This document shows, in pieces, positions 42,242 to 59,395 of a DNA stretch of 64,000 bases. The number at the start of each line of letters is the position of its first letter. Position 1 is the stretch's first letter. Position numbers and translations under genes: made by a program. Below the pieces are notes generated by a model. That model had not been told where the DNA came from and did no database searches. It was given only the letters and a program-made list of their open reading frames with translations. The stretch is taken from NCBI GenBank assembly GCA_024278985.1, contig JAJRSC010000005.1:1-64000 (forward strand), in the 5' to 3' direction. This DNA is from an archaeon (GTDB lineage: Archaea; AGJL01; Methanococci; Methanococcales; Methanocaldococcaceae).

Positions 42242-43170
42242 AATAGTTCCTTTCTAAGTTCTCCTAAGGTAGTATTTATTTCAGCAAAAGCATTATGCCT
42301 ATGAATACTCTCAAAATTTATCTGTTTTATATGAACTTTTGTTTCATCTGGTAGATGGTTGAATTTTTTAACAATTCTGTTTGCCATTTCCCTAACACAA
42401 TCCTCTACAAATTTAGGGTTAGTATGGCTTTTTTTAACAACATATGCCTCATCTACTCTCTTCAATATTCCATAAATTTCTGCACTCATTGAATTTTTTA
42501 TTATATTAATAATATCTAAAATCTCAACATAATAATCTTCTGGAATTTCAAGAATTATTTTTCCAATTCCTCTTTGGTTGTGGGTTGCAAAAATAACACT
42601 ATCCAATATTTTTAAAATATCCTCATCACTAAATCCTTTATTTTTTAAATTTTCAATACATATTTCTTTTATTAAGTTCTGAGCACATGGGCATGCAGTT
42701 ATTCCAACAACTTCTGCTCCTACTATTTTAGTAATCTTTAAATTATCATTTTCTTTAATTCCTTTAGCCCCTCCAATTATTTTATGAACTTCTTGAGAGA
42801 TTTTTTTTGAGATTGGACTCTTTTCTTCTAACATAAAATCACTAATCATTAACACCTCAGCCCTATTTGCATATTCATGTTTCTTAAACAATCTTTTAAC
42901 AATTTCCTCACATATTGTTTCCATTTCATAACTCTCCATTTTTAATGCTTCATCAATTATTTCCTCTATAACTTCTGGATGCCTTGACATATGTATTCCT
43001 TTTTGGGAACTTGGTAAATTAACAGAAACATCAAAGGTTGGAAGTAATATTATAGGTCTTTTTCCATTTCTTTTTATTCTAACAAGTTTTTTTAAATTAG
43101 ATATACCAACCTTTGTTAAGGATATTTTTATATCTGGTTCTATATTTTGTATATCACATTTCCAATTCAT
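42238..43170 (-). CDS. mptA: GTP cyclohydrolase MptA (FolE2 family)
   Basis: KGIHMSR, TACPCA, THNQR, NPKFVEDCVR, ESIHRH. Confidence 0.94.
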   Translation of the reverse strand: MNWKCDIQNIEPDIKISLTKVGISNLKKLVRIKRNGKRPIILLPTFDVSVNLPSSQKGIHMSRHPEVIEEIIDEALKMESYEMETICEEIVKRLFKKHEYANRAEVLMISDFMLEEKSPISKKISQEVHKIIGGAKGIKENDNLKITKIVGAEVVGITACPCAQNLIKEICIENLKNKGFSDEDILKILDSVIFATHNQRGIGKIILEIPEDYYVEILDIINIIKNSMSAEIYGILKRVDEAYVVKKSHTNPKFVEDCVREMANRIVKKFNHLPDETKVHIKQINFESIHRHNAFAEINTTLGELRKELL

Positions 43171-44383
43171 TTTTATCCCCTAATAAAACATCAATTAACT
43201 CTCTTGATAGTCTATAATAAACATTGTTTCCTTTTCTTTCTTTATAAATATATCCCATTTCATAAATATCTGAAAGATGTGTTCCAATAGTTCCAGGAGA
43301 TTTTTTTAAATATTCTGAAAGTTGTGTTACTGTTGTACTACCTCCAAGTTTTGCCATAGCCTTAACAATTTCAGATTGAGCAGGAGTTAAATGGTTTAAA
43401 ATCTGATGTCCAATACTTATTCCCAAAGAATGTATTGCTTCACTAACAATTTTCTCATCTATTTTATTTAAGTTCTTTTTTATAGCTATTGATATAGATT
43501 CTGAACATGTCATTATTATTTTTCTTGGTATCCCATCACATAATTCAACAATTTTATCAATTGCCTCTCTAGTAAATGGTTCAAATTCTTCAGCCCCTTC
43601 TATATGAGCATCTTCTAATCTTCTCCTAATTAAGTCATATGATTCTTCTGTTGAAAGAGGAGGCATATTTATAATCTTTGGAATTCTATCCTTTATAGGT
43701 GGAGATATTTTAGTTAGGTCTTCCATCAATGTTGGAGAACCTGCTAAGAATGTTAATATTCCTTCTTCATATAAAAAAGAATGGAAAAATTGTAAGAGTG
43801 ATAAACAACTTTTCTTAGCAAATTGGTCAGCTTCATCTATTAAGATTATACATAATTTATTCCTATCTTTAACTTCATTAATTAAAAATTCTAAATCCCT
43901 CTCTATTCTCTCTCTTGGATAATGTATAGGAACTTTATCTCCATAGTTGTTTAATTTTTTGTACATATCAATTATTTTAGAGGAATACTCCAAATAATCA
44001 GATTTTATTGTTCCATTTATTGTAAATAAATTTTCTGTTAAAATATTGTATAGTAATTGGATTAAAAACTGTCTTGGAGTTATTTGTGATGCTGTAAGTT
44101 CTACGACCCAATGACCTTGTTTTTTTGTAGCATAGTATATAATATTAAGCATTGAACTTTTACCAATTCCTTTAGTTCCTACAATTGCTGCATTGGCAAC
44201 ACTACCATGCATTGCTGACCCTAAAATTTCTCCAATTTCTCTTAACTCACTAACCCTTCCAACAAAAAATTTTGTGTTTCCTCTAATAGGCTTTTCTGAA
44301 AATGGATTATACTTTAATTTAAGTTTATGCATAGTGTTTGTTATCGACCTTGCCGATTCTTGTATAAATTCAATTGGGTCCAT
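43154..44383 (-). CDS. AAA+ ATPase with C-terminal wHTH, distant Orc1/Cdc6-like
   Basis: FVGR, Walker A GTKGIGKS, Walker B LIDEAD, DGIPR lid, C-terminal wHTH. Confidence 0.85.
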   Translation of the reverse strand: MDPIEFIQESARSITNTMHKLKLKYNPFSEKPIRGNTKFFVGRVSELREIGEILGSAMHGSVANAAIVGTKGIGKSSMLNIIYYATKKQGHWVVELTASQITPRQFLIQLLYNILTENLFTINGTIKSDYLEYSSKIIDMYKKLNNYGDKVPIHYPRERIERDLEFLINEVKDRNKLCIILIDEADQFAKKSCLSLLQFFHSFLYEEGILTFLAGSPTLMEDLTKISPPIKDRIPKIINMPPLSTEESYDLIRRRLEDAHIEGAEEFEPFTREAIDKIVELCDGIPRKIIMTCSESISIAIKKNLNKIDEKIVSEAIHSLGISIGHQILNHLTPAQSEIVKAMAKLGGSTTVTQLSEYLKKSPGTIGTHLSDIYEMGYIYKERKGNNVYYRLSRELIDVLLGDKNELEM

Positions 44384-45004
44384 AAACTCACCACTAAATT
44401 ACTATCGTAATTAGAATATATGCACTTCGAAAATTAGAAACTTTCTATTTTAGAATTTCGTCAATTAACTAAATTTAAATCTATAAAATAATTTTTTATT
44501 TCTTTTAAAAACGTGAATATAATTTTATTACATTAAAAATATTGTGAATATAATTTTATTTTTTTGTATTTTATATTAATAATCCCTCAGAAATAAACTT
44601 TAATAATTTTACAATAAATATATAAACTATTCTTATGAAATAAAGTTTTTTTTAATTCTTCTCATGAGAATAAAAAATACATAAGTAAATATAAATTATC
44701 ATGAATCTAACATTTTTATAATATATAAACTATGAATCAAATTTTATTATAGTTATAACAAGTATAAAATATCTGAGATAAAAATAAAATAAAAAAAGAA
44801 ATCATTTTATATTAGAAATTATGTTGAGTTTTATCAAATCTATAAAAAATTGAAAATTATTTTCAATATTAACATAGTAATAAAAATCCATAAATTTATG
44901 ATAGTAAATTATAATATGAATCTAAAGGTATTTATATGATAAAAAGAAAAAATAATTGAGCAACTGTAAAGATAAAATATAAAATTTTATTAAAAAAATA
45001 AAAA
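44384..45004. other. AT-rich intergenic region with direct repeats (divergent promoters / candidate origin region)
   Basis: GTGAATATAATTTTATT x2 (44513, 44544); AATATATAAACTAT x2 (44617, 44720); palindrome TTCTCATGAGAA at 44659-44670. Confidence 0.55.
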
Positions 45005-45016
45005 TTGGTGATTAAT

Positions 45017-45544
45017 ATGGAAAGATTGCCATATGAGGTCGTATCAACTATATTCAGAAAAGCCATTTTACACTATTTAGTAATAACCGGACAAGTATTT
45101 CCTACAAAATTATCCAAAGATTTGGGTATATCAAAAGGACTCTCATCAGGGTTTTTAAGACTATGTAACGCTTTAGGTGTAGTAAAAAGAGAAAGAAACA
45201 AACATAAAGTTTTATATTCACTAACGGGTAAAGGAGTGGCAGTTTTAAAAAGATTAGCGCCCGAAATATTTGATTTAAGTTTTAGTGAGGTTTTCGAAAC
45301 ACTTTCGAAAAGTAAGTTTTCTACTAAACATTACCCATTAGCCAAGTTAGGATTTAGAATAGAGTATGAAGAAGATAACTTCAAGGGAGTGACTTTTTAC
45401 TTTTATGACTATGATAACAACCTTTTAGGAACGGTATATAGGAATTCTCAGAATATTTGGTGGTGTAGTATATGTAAAAAAGAGGCATGTAAGCATATCG
45501 ATTACGCCAAAAAGCTATATAATAAATTGAAAAATATAAATTAA
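45017..45544 (+). CDS. wHTH DNA-binding protein with C-terminal SWIM-like Zn finger
   Basis: PTKLSKDLGISKGLSS...YSLTGKG wHTH; CSICKKEACKH; ATG after GGTGA. Confidence 0.82.
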   Translation: MERLPYEVVSTIFRKAILHYLVITGQVFPTKLSKDLGISKGLSSGFLRLCNALGVVKRERNKHKVLYSLTGKGVAVLKRLAPEIFDLSFSEVFETLSKSKFSTKHYPLAKLGFRIEYEEDNFKGVTFYFYDYDNNLLGTVYRNSQNIWWCSICKKEACKHIDYAKKLYNKLKNIN

Positions 45545-45547
45545 TAA

Positions 45548-45924
45548 TTTTCGAGTTTTCGAGTTGCATGTATGTATATGCCACGGTTGTGTATATAGAA
45601 AATTTTTAGAAAAAAATTATCACAAAAATTTTAGGCAGTAGTATGCTCTTTTTTAGTTTAGATAATACAGTATTTTAGAGATTTTATAAAAATGTCAACA
45701 AATATTTTTTTGTTTTTGTGAAAAATAATAATTTGACATTATTATATTTTATAATTTTTATTTTATTTTATTTTTTTAATTTAACAAATAAATTTTTTAT
45801 AAAATTCTTTTATTGTACAAAAACAAAAATTAATAAAAAATTTTTGTTGTGATAATTTTGGTTTATGTGTTTTGTATATCTTTCCCTTAACCATATACAT
45901 ACATGCAATTCGAAAACTCGAAAA
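45548..45924. repeat. Nested inverted repeats flanking AT-rich core (candidate origin element)
   Basis: 33-bp arms at 45548-45580 and 45892-45924 (1 mismatch); 13-bp arms at 45613-45625 and 45847-45859; both pairs centred on 45736. Confidence 0.88.
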
Positions 45925-46027
45925 CCTTATTTAAAAAGTGATTATATTTATGTATCAACAATACACAAGTGTTTTTAAATTTCAAAAAAATAGTAATAAA
46001 ACATTTACCTTAAAATAGAAATATTTC

Positions 46028-47065
46028 CTATATATCACTCGAAAACTCGAAAATACAGCAGTCTAACAGAAATAGTGATATAAAAGAATTGTATTTATTT
46101 TTTTTGTATTTCCTCAATAATTCTATAAACTTAGGAGTATTTTTTTTCTTTAATTTAAACCTAATCTTACCTCTAACTTTGTATTTTGCTAAAATACCCA
46201 TATTACATAAATCATTTAAGTATTTATATAGTGTTATATATTTAAAATCTACTTTGTTATAAATATCTTCAATTTTAAAACTTTTTAGTTTAATAACTAT
46301 TTCAACAAGCTTTTTATATTTTCTATCAACTATGTAGGGAAGTATTTTAAGCCATGGAATTTTTAATTCTCTAATTGTTTTTAACTACCTTTTACAGTGT
46401 TTTAATATTATTTCAATTACTTCTAAATTACCATTTGTTATATTATAAAGATGTTCTGCTACTTTTCTACTAATACAATAGCCAAGTTTTTTAGCAAAGT
46501 ATCTAATAACTCCAATAATATTTATTATTCCTTCAGGAAAATGTTTTAAAACTTCTTTATGGCACTCTATAGGATACCTTAGAACAACACTTATATTATT
46601 TTTTCTTAGTTCTTTAACAAATCTTATAAAACTCTTTTTATAGTTCCATTTTCTAATGTCATGAATATCCAAAACAATAATTGGATTTATTGATTTTAAT
46701 ATAGCTAATAACTTACCTCTAACTTTATAAAAATCCCAATTTTTGATATTGATAAAAAACTCCTTTATAGCCTTAAACCATGCCTTTTTAGCTCTATAAT
46801 GTTTTTTAAAATATTTTTTTTCTACAATATAATTAAATAAATTTTCAAACCATCCAGAATTTTTATTAACTAAATAATATTTATCTTTTAATAAAAATGC
46901 TAATCTTAAAATTATCTTTTTAATGTTTGGAGTTCCCAATACTCTAAATATTGGAAATTTGTTAAAATAAAATTCACCACCCTCCTCTAAAATATTCTCT
47001 CTATGAGTTGGAAATAAATATAATCCATTAAAAAATTCTTCAGGTATATCTTTAATTATCATCAT
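46028..47065 (-). pseudogene. Degenerate AAA+-like/wHTH protein, interrupted as sequenced by one in-frame TAG
   Basis: Track ORF ends KHCKR* at 46385-46387, but the frame stays open for 118 more codons encoding a wHTH-like domain (YITLYKYLNDLCNMGIL...GKIRFKL). Confidence 0.7.
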
Positions 47066-57708: not shown

Positions 57709-57899
57709 TTTTTCACCTCATATAATAATTATATATTATTACTAAATAAATTATTTGTATTACTATATAAGTTTTTTTATAATTATAGTATTAACATATT
57801 TTATCTTAAGATTTAAATTTATCTTTATATGTGTTCATAATATATTTAATTAATATATATAAAAATAATAAATCTTAGGAATTTATAGCTTTTAATAAA

Positions 57900-58298
57900 T
57901 AAAAATTAGTTCTATTAAATACTTAGATAATATTTATCACGCTAAAAACTTTTTATTTTTAGTTTAGAGGATTTTAATCGGTTATTTTTCGATTTTAAGG
58001 ATTTTTATCAATTTTCTAAGGGTCGCGTATTTTAATTATTTTAAATATTTGGATGTAGTGAATTATCGAGATTTTTAAAAGATTTTAGACAATTATTTTA
58101 AAATTAAAATTTTCCCAATAAACAAAACTTATTTTCAAAATTAAAAAGTTTTTAGATTAAAAAATTAGAAAAGAAAGATAAATTAAAAACTTCAGGAGTT
58201 TATAAATAAAAGCTATTGCCTACCCCTTGACAAATTACATAATAGAAAAAGTTATATATTAGAAGAGATATTATACTAAATACGTAAAATTGCCTCTT
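57900..58298 (+). promoter_or_regulatory. CRISPR leader
   Basis: Non-coding AT-rich region abutting the first repeat; BRE/TATA-like GAAAAAGTTATATA about 40 bp upstream of repeat 1; left boundary approximate. Confidence 0.75.
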
Positions 58299-59395
58299 GT
58301 TAAAATCAGACCGTTACGGTATGGAAACCTGATTACTTTAATTTTTTTAACTTCTTTTTTGTCTTGTTAAAATCAGACCGTTACGGTATGGAAACTTATT
58401 GATGAATTTGAATATTTTGATTGATGTATTGAGTTAAAATCAGACCGTTACGGTATGGAAACTATCTCTTTATTCTCATGCCTCTATCCCTCCATATTTG
58501 TTAAAATCAGACCGTTACGGTATGGAAACTTTAAATTTAAGAAAAACCCTGAATTATGGAAAAAAAGTTAAAATCAGACCGTTACGGTATGGAAACAAAT
58601 CAATTAATATATTTTTCTCACCATCAATTTCAGTTAAAATCAGACTGTTACGGTATGGAAACGACAATTAATCCTGAAGCCCCAGTAACAGTAATACTGT
58701 TAAAATCAGACCGTTACGGTATGGAAACCAATAAAAGATAAGAAAATATCAAAGCCATATTATTAGTTAAAATCAGACCGTTACGGTATGGAAACGCAAC
58801 TGCTATTAATATCCCTGCTCCAAGCAATATTGTTAAAATCAGACCGTTACGGTATGGAAACATCAAAATATTCAAATTCACCAATAATAAAAATCAAAAG
58901 TTAAAATCAGACCGTTACGGTATGGAAACTTAACAAGTTTTTTAGTTTTTGATATTAAATTATCTGTTAAAATCAGACCGTTACGGTATGGAAACAATAT
59001 TTTTTTTAGATATATAATATATGATGGGGTAGTTAAAATCAGACCGTTACGGTATGGAAACATCAAAATATTCAAATTCACCAATAATAAAAATCAAAAG
59101 TTAAAATCAGACCGTTACGGTATGGAAACATTACATTATCATAATGAGAATATAAAAGAGGTGAGGTTAAAATCAGACCGTTACGGTATGGAAACCAGTT
59201 TTTTGTATGTTCTTCATATTGTCTTTCTTTTAGTTAAAATCAGACCGTTACGGTATGGAAACATAAAATTACAGCATTACAACTCTTGCTGTAATAAAGG
59301 TTAAAATCAGACCGTTACGGTATGGAAACTTTTTTATTGTTGAGGTTAGCATATCCTCATTTGGCGTTAAAATCAGACCGTTACGGTATGGAAAC
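58299..59395 (+). CRISPR. CRISPR array, 17 repeats / 16 spacers (36-38 bp)
   Basis: 30-bp repeat GTTAAAATCAGACCGTTACGGTATGGAAAC; repeat 6 has one C>T; 3' ATGGAAAC handle and leader give + orientation. Confidence 0.99.

Follow-up and report, generated by a model that had tools for sequence, protein, structure and literature searches.

Where does replication of the chromosome begin in the Methanococcales, and which proteins and sites would start it? In the available passages of Raymann et al. (2014) and of a 2017 review, this order is one of two archaeal orders reported without a recognisable Orc1/Cdc6, and its origin is described as an in-silico prediction since 2004, without experimental validation. 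We consider this question for a locus at positions 43154-47065 of a 64,000-nt stretch of DNA from a member of the Methanocaldococcaceae (positions 1 to 64,000 of contig JAJRSC010000005.1, assembly GCA_024278985.1), which we refer to as the window, which has a GC content of ~27% outside its rRNA end and whose proteins are most similar to those of Methanocaldococcus. An initial annotation had proposed the locus as a non-canonical origin or initiator module. Our analysis indicates that the locus represents, in a new species, an origin type that is known but unvalidated, and that the feature is real and strongly conserved. We regard it as fairly probable, though well short of certain, that the locus is the chromosomal replication-origin region of this Methanocaldococcus-like archaeon, with a composite cis region that extends over two gaps. 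The interval is made up of five features, in which the winged helix-turn-helix is abbreviated wHTH, the open reading frame ORF and the intergenic region IGR, and in which the two gaps measure 621-633 bp and 483 bp:

43154-44383, minus strand: the Mc-pRIP gene (gene 1), an intact ORF with AAA+ and ArsR-type wHTH parts
44384-45016 (44384-45004 if gene 2 starts at TTG 45005), no strand: IGR1, between the divergent genes 1 and 2
45017-45544 (listed ORF from 45005), plus strand: the wHTH-Cys3His gene (gene 2), 175-179 aa
45545-46027, no strand: IGR2, 483 bp, between the convergent genes 2 and 3
46028-47065, minus strand: the third gene (gene 3), for a predicted pseudo-ATPase, a 345-codon frame with one in-frame TAG

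By its sequence, gene 1 is a member of the Mc-pRIP/MJ0774 family. The initial annotation had described an intact AAA+/wHTH gene on the minus strand and had named a Cdc6-like gene as the proposed marker of the M. jannaschii origin; both points stand, as the ORF is uninterrupted, its AAA-type and HTH_5 matches in Pfam are above cut-off, and the gene belongs to the published Methanococcales initiator family. The matches are to HTH_5 (PF01022; 46.1 bits against a cut-off of 22, residues 334-381), AAA_22 (PF13401; 30.6 against 27), AAA_16 (PF13191; 32.9 against 32.6), ATPase_2 (39.3 bits, above cut-off) and AAA (also above cut-off). The Walker A (GTKGIGKSS) and Walker B (ILIDEADQF) motifs are intact in 16/16 aligned sequences. 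Across 15 homologue clusters, whose named members are from Methanocaldococcus, Methanotorris, Methanothermococcus and Methanococcus, identity is 68-92%; over the full length it is 87-92% to Methanocaldococcus orthologues (92% to the M. indicus protein) and 68-77% to other genera. The available passages of DoriC 5.0 (PMC3531139) and Gao 2014 (PMC4009838) give the name Mc-pRIP to MJ0774 and its relatives and predict one adjacent oriC per Methanococcales genome, those of Raymann et al. (2014) speak of a possible non-orthologous replacement of Orc1/Cdc6, and those of the Ori-Finder-Arch preprint (10.64898/2026.08.15.744077) add a lid domain to Mc-pRIP and use the AAA+ families PF13401 and PF13191. 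Database sources label the protein an ArsR-family regulator. The 21 Pfam families listed for Mc-pRIP at E<=1 include no Cdc6-specific lid or C-terminal winged-helix family, and the ORC-CDC6-like family PF24389 scores 20.5 against a cut-off of 27. A sequence search of the PDB returned wHTH matches only, with neither Drosophila Cdc6 (chain 7jgr_G, E=0.096) nor AspA (E=0.086) reaching significance.

The gap beside this gene carries the published repeat of the family. What had been described as a ~620-bp AT-rich gap measures 621 bp (44384-45004) at 14.5% GC, or 633 bp if gene 2 begins at ATG 45017, as it does in homologues. No AT tract in the window is longer or less stable than IGR1, with only 0.02% of same-size windows equally unstable, and the alignment of IGR1 (A5) contains islands conserved across two genera. 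The sequence RTGAATMWAA occurs in IGR1 in five same-strand copies, of 13 in the window, at positions conserved across both genera. Read on the other strand, this repeat corresponds to the published 'Methanococcaceae ORB' (origin recognition box), given as TT[TA][GT]ATTCA[TC][GA]AT[AT]T[AT]T[AT] in Table 1 of the available part of Ori-Finder 2 (PMC4164010). A scan of the window, at 0-2 mismatches, places the copies as follows:

44505-44522, minus strand: Methanococcaceae ORB copy 1
44536-44553, minus strand: Methanococcaceae ORB copy 2
44693-44710, minus strand: Methanococcaceae ORB copy 3
44724-44741, minus strand: Methanococcaceae ORB copy 4
44908-44925, minus strand: Methanococcaceae ORB copy 5, ~90 bp upstream of the gene 2 start

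The five copies have 0, 1, 1, 2 and 2 mismatches within 633 bp, and the other 61 kb of the window contain 12 matches at <=2 mismatches. They are laid out as two pairs (31 bp within a pair, 188 bp between the pairs) and one single copy. At the same threshold, the 2.9-kb module of six other loci contains 5, 5, 5, 4, 5 and 3 copies, all on one strand; the copies within IGR1 of these loci share the layout of the window, and one of the three in the Methanothermococcus locus L009 lies outside IGR1 (offset 1475). Because five Methanococcaceae ORB copies are present at 0-2 mismatches, IGR1 matches in sequence the oriC type published in silico as adjacent to Mc-pRIP. IGR1 thus described holds phased direct repeats and two putative divergent promoters. 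Between the ORB pairs lies a further conserved element, in columns ~306-395 of the alignment:

44583-44672, no strand: conserved central block of IGR1, with CCTCAGAAATAAACTTTAAT ... ATGAAATAAAGTT ... TTCTTCTCATGAGAAT

A direct repeat (D3) pairs 44572-44601 with 44619-44648. The central block has no match at gathering score in Rfam, and a search of both gaps gave two chance-level matches only (E=0.39 and 0.55). A further core of the published ORB (GTGAATATAA) is found at 45212-45221 on the opposite strand, inside gene 2, over the conserved residues L-Y-S-L.

A second class of site, which we write TCGAAAAY, recurs across the locus. TCGAAAA occurs 11 times in the 64-kb window against an expectation of 4.2, a count reached by 0/100 shuffles, and 9/11 copies fall within 44427-46053 (at 44427, 45291, 45305, 45548, 45556, 45910, 45918, 46039 and 46047), a clustering with a binomial P of 2e-13, or 2e-7 with tandem copies counted as one site. 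The initial annotation had noticed this recurrence in DNA where CG is scarce, and the base composition bears it out: the observed/expected ratio of CpG is 0.13 over 1601-64000 (147 CpG in 62 kb, outside the rRNA), with a local exception of 1.17 within 44384-46060, where 10/22 CpG are part of TCGA. The double box TCGAAAAYTCGAAAA is found exactly three times, at 45548 (minus), 45910 (plus) and 46039 (plus), and is accompanied by a CATACATGCAA flank; the copy at 44427 (plus) has two mismatches to this 15-mer and one to the 14-mer that was used for the other loci. The annotation had described a TCGAAAA-based motif across the module. That motif is real; the annotation missed the second repeat class, the published ORB, which IGR1 carries in five copies. 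The boxes and the core that two of them enclose are:

44416-44441, plus strand: box A, of the TCGAAAAY class (TCGAAAATTAGAAA, 1 mismatch), with a ATATATGCAC flank like that of box D, 33-58 bp upstream of the Mc-pRIP ATG
45288-45311, no strand: box B, TTTTCGAAACACTTTCGAAAAG, within the coding sequence of gene 2 (residues F-E-T-L-S-K), with TCGAAAA at 45291 (minus) and 45305 (plus)
45548-45580, minus strand: box C, left arm of a 33-nt inverted repeat, with a double TCGAAAAC and a CATACATACATGCAA flank, 3 bp past the gene 2 stop
45581-45891, no strand: AT-rich core, 311 bp, 16.4% GC overall and 12.6% GC in the inner 215 bp
45892-45924, plus strand: box D, right arm of the 33-nt inverted repeat
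46039-46053, plus strand: box E, an exact TCGAAAACTCGAAAA whose opposite strand codes for the C-terminal residues (F-E-F-S) of gene 3

The organisation of IGR2 resembles that of an origin. The ~480-bp gap with symmetric inverted repeats described earlier is indeed present: IGR2 is 483 bp long, and its arms C and D (45548-45580 and 45892-45924) form a 33-nt inverted pair that is 97% complementary with 311 nt between. Start to start, the arms are 361 bp apart in the window and 356-364 bp apart in 7/7 loci of two genera, where the seven are the window and the loci L002, L003, L004, L005, L008 and L009 of a genome scan. In the alignment of these seven sequences, 14/33 columns of arm C, 21/35 of arm D and 45/311 of the spacer are invariant. 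Within the core lies a nested inverted repeat (I5; 45593-45628 and 45844-45879), with the cores ATTATCACAAAAA (45616-45628) and TTGTGATAAT (45847-45856), and a nested pair ATTATCACAAA / TTTGTGATAAT is kept in the alignment (A4). The core, a candidate unwinding zone, has a GC content in the lowest 1.8% of 311-bp windows. The geometry of a canonical oriC, inverted sites around an AT-rich element, is therefore found here (33-nt arms, 311 bp at 16.4% GC, 7/7 loci), with the arms as putative initiator sites. IGR2 is flanked by two 3' ends, and therefore no promoter explains its conserved length and geometry.

The boxes outside IGR2 are conserved as well. Box A likely lies in the promoter zone of the Mc-pRIP gene, belongs to a repeat family (D5) in which it is 84% identical to 45899-45923, and has a counterpart of its class upstream of gene 1 in 9/10 sequences (the window and L002-L009, some with >2 mismatches), being absent in L001. 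At the site of box B, the rare TCG codon stands at an invariant Ser in 6/7 loci, while the window has AGT there and TCG at the Ser six codons on; TCG accounts for 5/750 Ser codons in the long ORFs of the window. A rare TTC codon at this site, which accounts for 61/738 Phe codons in the same ORFs, is kept in 7/7 loci. Box E is present in 6/7 loci, being lost in L005, and is read in different frames, as TTC GAR TTT TCG A in Methanocaldococcus and as TTT CGR xTT TTC GG in Methanothermococcus. Because rare codons are kept at box B and box E is conserved across reading frames, the boxes in the Mc-pRIP upstream zone, in gene 2 and at the end of gene 3 are held there by selection on the DNA, not on the proteins alone. 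A box of the TCGAAAATTCGAAA type also occurs inside the ATP-grasp gene, in an F-E-F-E-N-S-K insertion, in five Methanocaldococcus loci (L002 10456-10477, L003 10531-10544, L004 10651-10672, L005 10543-10564 and L006 2698-2711); the window and Methanothermococcus have none.

Genes and motifs are conserved together at the syntenic locus, as the initial annotation had asked of such a module. The genome scan returned nine loci, L001-L009, in which L001 is from M. indicus, L008 and L009 are from Methanothermococcus, and the flanks of L006 and L007 end before the upstream module. All three genes and the box are syntenic in 6/7 other loci whose flank reaches the upstream module, covering two genera, and the two classes of motif occupy syntenic positions in Methanocaldococcus as in Methanothermococcus. 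L002, L003, L004 and L005 share the order cbiL, gene 3, gap, gene 2, gap, gene 1, mptA, ATP-grasp, tfe. In L008 and L009 the part from gene 3 to mptA is retained, with no cbiL match in either and no ATP-grasp or tfe match in L009. The mptA gene is downstream of the Mc-pRIP gene in 8/9 loci, the exception being M. indicus. There, at L001 6867-9215, gene 1 lies 24 bp after an ORF like a hydrogenase large subunit and adjoins ORFs that resemble, by eye, subunits of CO dehydrogenase/acetyl-CoA synthase. Because the usual neighbours and the TCGA boxes are missing around gene 1, this arrangement reads as a recent relocation in the window's closest named relative, and the initiator gene therefore need not sit beside the boxes. 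The 1.41-Mb chromosome of M. indicus still encodes homologues of genes 2 and 3.

The two partner genes are restricted to this lineage, and the product of gene 3 is predicted to fold like an Orc1/Cdc6- or STAND-like pseudo-ATPase, with an AAA+-like core, a lid and a wHTH. The initial annotation had called it a degenerate AAA+/wHTH gene, which agrees with the model and with the degenerate Walker motifs; the amendment concerns its reading frame, which is a single one of 345 codons (46028-47065) with one in-frame TAG (46385-46387, codon 227) in the linker that joins the AAA+-like/lid part to the wHTH. The gene is intact, at 351-355 aa, in 6/6 other loci, and most database homologues have 343-353 aa. 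Identity to five homologues is 50-60% after the TAG and 56-71% before it; because the two parts are conserved alike, the stop is one of three things, recent, read through or an error. The M. villosus homologue is short in the database (244 aa), and a 126-aa database protein begins at the same linker; the gene may have been interrupted here more than once, or errors of assembly may account for these cases. The family is small, with 9 matches among 1.84 billion representatives. In 14 sequences it fails the AAA+ ATPase motifs GxxxxGK[ST] (Walker A) and hhhhDE (Walker B): the sequence at the P-loop is ATPNLKKT, which lacks the glycines and in which K-K-T varies little or not at all, and Walker B consists of hhhh[D/E/N] and then a residue that is not acidic, the acid pair being gone. 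The structural model of the family, with the M. jannaschii homologue as first sequence, has a predicted local distance difference score (pLDDT) of 82.7 and a predicted template-modelling score (pTM) of 0.77, and consists of an alpha/beta core of the P-loop type with a helical lid and, at the C terminus, a wHTH. Its best 15 fold matches in the PDB are mostly CED-4, Cdc6 and Orc chains, with MalT and RFC too, at E of only 3e-4 to 6e-3 and template-modelling (TM) scores of only 0.13-0.27. Yeast Cdc6, human and yeast subunits of the origin recognition complex (ORC), and the archaeal Orc1/Cdc6 structures 1w5t, 2qby, 1fnn and 2v1u are among the fold matches, for which E extends to ~1e-2. A sequence search of the PDB with the third protein gave no match. 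Paralogy of Mc-pRIP and the third protein is not supported on the level of sequence: profile comparison aligns only the wHTH parts, at 14% probability and with E=0.002.

Gene 2 encodes a small protein for which the listed start is TTG 45005; the homologues begin at an ATG equivalent to 45017, which gives 175 aa. Its homologues form 8 clusters in a near-length, word-indexed search, every named one from Methanocaldococcus, and tblastn adds the two Methanothermococcus loci L008 and L009. The earlier description as a wHTH/Zn-finger gene is borne out for the wHTH, by weak Pfam matches only and no Pfam family, and the 'Zn finger' is better given as an invariant C-terminal Cys3His motif, WWCxxCx4CxH (alignment A3). 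The SWIM zinc finger has the signature CxCxnCxH, and the Pfam SWIM family matches 0/11 gene 2 members at E<=10. The structural model has a low pLDDT of 57.9, and its fold matches are generic MarR/ArsR-type wHTH proteins, none at E<=1e-3. An Atlas look-up with a stored homologue of a window protein gave a PadR-like lead (0.92), which we do not adopt.

How does this locus compare with known origins? A work by Zhang and Zhang from 2004 is reportedly the one cited for the Mc-pRIP-adjacent oriC of the Methanococcales. Our locus shares with that origin the initiator family, the long AT-rich gap beside the gene and the published ORB motif, five times. The Fig. 1 legend of the Ori-Finder-Arch preprint (10.64898/2026.08.15.744077), in its available text, has the M. 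jannaschii origin follow the pattern ORB(-)/DUE/ORB(+), where DUE is the DNA unwinding element. Our locus differs in the TCGAAAAY double box, the inverted pair of IGR2, the boxes in coding sequence and the two neighbouring genes, which are absent from the available published passages. No description of the TCGAAAAY box, IGR2 or the two accessory genes was found in the literature searched, of which some sources were available in part; the supplementary motif table of the preprint may already list the box. The M. jannaschii names of the two accessory genes, which we take to be MJ0773 and MJ0772, are not mentioned in the literature searched. What the window adds to the known type is a second conserved class of site, an inverted geometry in a promoter-free gap, DNA-level selection in genes, and two lineage-restricted partners including an Orc-fold pseudo-ATPase, the last as modelled.

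Canonical Orc1/Cdc6-ORB origins, such as Sulfolobus oriC2 with its Orc1-1/Orc1-3 heterodimer on DNA (PDB 2qby), offer further parallels. In both, the gene for an AAA+/lid/wHTH initiator adjoins the origin, an AT-rich core lies between inverted sites, and a site is present in the initiator's own upstream zone; as at oriC2, the module has a second protein of the same predicted fold, with 2qby_A among the fold matches of gene 3 (E=4.9e-3). In contrast to canonical Orc1/Cdc6, Mc-pRIP has an ArsR-type wHTH with no match to the Cdc6 C-terminal domain, the box lacks the TCCA-GAAAC core and the G-string of the canonical ORB, and in the second protein neither the Walker glycines nor the acid pair of Walker B remain. 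Eukaryotic ORC/Cdc6, which combines active and inactive AAA+ subunits, is similar in that an intact and a degenerate ATPase of the same predicted three-domain plan are encoded together, and several of the best fold matches of gene 3 are to yeast Cdc6 and to ORC chains from human and yeast (E 7.9e-4 to 4e-3), although these reach TM scores of 0.13-0.27 only and sequence similarity is limited to the wHTH. For gene 2, a precedent is found in the available accounts of WhiP at Sulfolobus oriC3, a winged-helix initiator outside Orc1/Cdc6: a small winged-helix protein that acts at an archaeal origin and has a non-ORB repeat of its own; the gene 2 protein differs in having one wHTH and a Cys3His module and no Pfam family, and is likened to WhiP by description, not homology.

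Orc1/Cdc6-type initiators load two MCM rings head to head from inverted polar sites, set at a fixed distance around an AT-rich core. By analogy with such an ORB(-)/DUE/ORB(+) origin, Mc-pRIP would bind polar sites through its wHTH and AAA+ parts, oligomerise with ATP and load MCM head to head into the core between the inverted arms, while a box upstream of its own gene could provide autoregulation. The pseudo-ATPase and the wHTH-Cys3His protein would occupy the other class of site and assist or gate firing. That the TCGAAAAY arms are the initiator's loading sites is a possibility we would not put at even chances, and the reverse, with the published IGR1 repeats as loading sites and the TCGAAAAY boxes left to an accessory protein, is tentative; a substantial minority of the odds goes to neither assignment. 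An arrangement with Mc-pRIP at the inverted arms and the upstream box and the accessory proteins at the other class of site has modest odds, and the reverse is nearly as likely. We consider it rather unlikely that all parts hold jointly, as a three-protein, two-code origin in which the TCGAAAAY arms are the real helicase-loading sites, Mc-pRIP and the pseudo-ATPase form a minimal ORC-like pair, and the published 'ORB' repeats are read by a firing-gating wHTH-Cys3His protein. If that joint reading were true, the boxes would be important enough to be written into coding sequence around all three genes.

Several observations weigh against an origin at this locus. The curated orc1/cdc6 model TIGR02928 gives Mc-pRIP 38.6 bits, and its cut-off of 181.3 is not reached. 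The published ORB copies are all in the same orientation, unlike canonical inverted ORBs, and the published 'common' ORB has 0 matches in the 64 kb at <=3 mismatches, which agrees with the initial annotation in its statement that canonical ORBs are absent. Neither gap is unique in its AT-richness: IGR1 is more stable than the CRISPR leader when segments of 300 bp are compared, and the IGR2 core is in the top 4.8% for instability (its inner part in the top 1.9%). In M. indicus, gene 1 stands in another context with no TCGA in 2.3 kb upstream. The GC-skew analysis that had been suggested as a check for an initiation signal gave no turning point at the locus within the 64 kb; within the window, none of the RY, MK, GC and AT disparity curves reaches an extreme at 44-46 kb, nor do the genes change orientation at that point. 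In the literature, a table in the available part of the 2017 review marks the origin of M. jannaschii as solely in silico, another paper, likewise available in part, has multiple origins suggested for Methanocaldococcus from the one experimental study, and no experimental origin mapping in the Methanococcales, including marker frequency in M. maripaludis, was found in the literature searched, some of it available in part.

Could the locus instead be a purely transcriptional module, in which three wHTH regulators, one with an AAA+ part, control each other and neighbouring operons through operator boxes, with no replication start? The ArsR-family name of Mc-pRIP in databases and the match of its wHTH to the ArsR HTH_5 family are consistent with this, as are box A upstream of its gene, the fifth ORB copy ~90 bp upstream of gene 2, the box within the ATP-grasp gene of some species and the lack of a skew signal. 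However, a gap between two 3' ends needs no operator, yet the length of IGR2, its arms and their 356-364 bp spacing are kept in 7/7 loci; an identity of 68-92% across the order would be unusual for a local regulator; and, in the available passages of the literature, Mc-pRIP is the sole Cdc6-like gene reported in a lineage said to lack Orc1/Cdc6. We judge a module without replication to be improbable. We find it very improbable that the locus is a site of chromosome segregation or organisation, at which the TCGAAAAY boxes would be a centromere-like array bound by a wHTH protein. The boxes are scattered over ~1.7 kb, up to 5 kb in some species, and some lie inside genes, as such an array might, and the wHTH of Mc-pRIP has a below-threshold profile match to the archaeal segregation protein AspA (E=0.086); but this match is not significant, ParA/SegA-type ATPase families have no match among 11 scanned proteins (ten ORFs of the window plus, for gene 3, its M. 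jannaschii homologue P0033), and an inverted pair around an AT core is the geometry of an origin. Least probable is a domesticated or relic mobile-element replicon that gave a non-orthologous initiator and is now dispensable, with polyploid cells starting replication by recombination: replacement of Orc1/Cdc6 by a non-orthologous protein is spoken of in the available part of Raymann et al. (2014), an initiator gene with iteron-like direct repeats and small wHTH genes would resemble a plasmid replicon, among viral proteins the third protein is closest in fold to a 'plasmid replication protein' of a haloarchaeal phage (E=1.2e-4, TM 0.34), and the TAG in gene 3 and the relocated M. indicus initiator hint at relaxed constraint, but the three proteins and the DNA have no close plasmid relative (20-24% identity to bacterial AAA ATPases for the proteins, and one 8% AT-rich match for the DNA), no integrase or transposase is nearby, synteny among core genes spans two genera, Mc-pRIP is very strongly conserved, and gene 3 is as conserved after its TAG as before.

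The locus lies among core genes, as had been described, with tfe, mptA and rpoE among those named and no integrase or transposase. The confirmed core-gene neighbours are those for an HD-domain protein, TFE, the ATP-grasp protein, MptA, CbiL, Spt4, RpoE' and Kae1-Bud32, and integrase and transposase families have no match among the same 11 proteins. Gene 1 overlaps the mptA start by 17 nt (43154-43170) and gene 3 overlaps the cbiL stop by 14 nt (47052-47065), and both genes look co-transcribed with housekeeping genes. Elsewhere in the window, the 3' part of the 23S rRNA, the 5S rRNA (1166-1280) and the RNase P RNA (1334-1591) follow one another directly on the plus strand (1-1591), and a CRISPR array with at least 16 DR13-type repeats occupies 58299-59395; the AT-rich stretch at 57720-58020, just upstream of this array, is the least stable 300-bp segment in the window.

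The reading we favour, an origin region of the Mc-pRIP type with a second class of conserved site and two partner genes, supplies a parts list that makes the origin question of the Methanococcales accessible to binding assays, chromatin immunoprecipitation and plasmid-replication work in the genetically tractable M. maripaludis. If the pseudo-ATPase partners the initiator, the pair would parallel, in an archaeon, the mixture of active and inactive subunits found in eukaryotic ORC.

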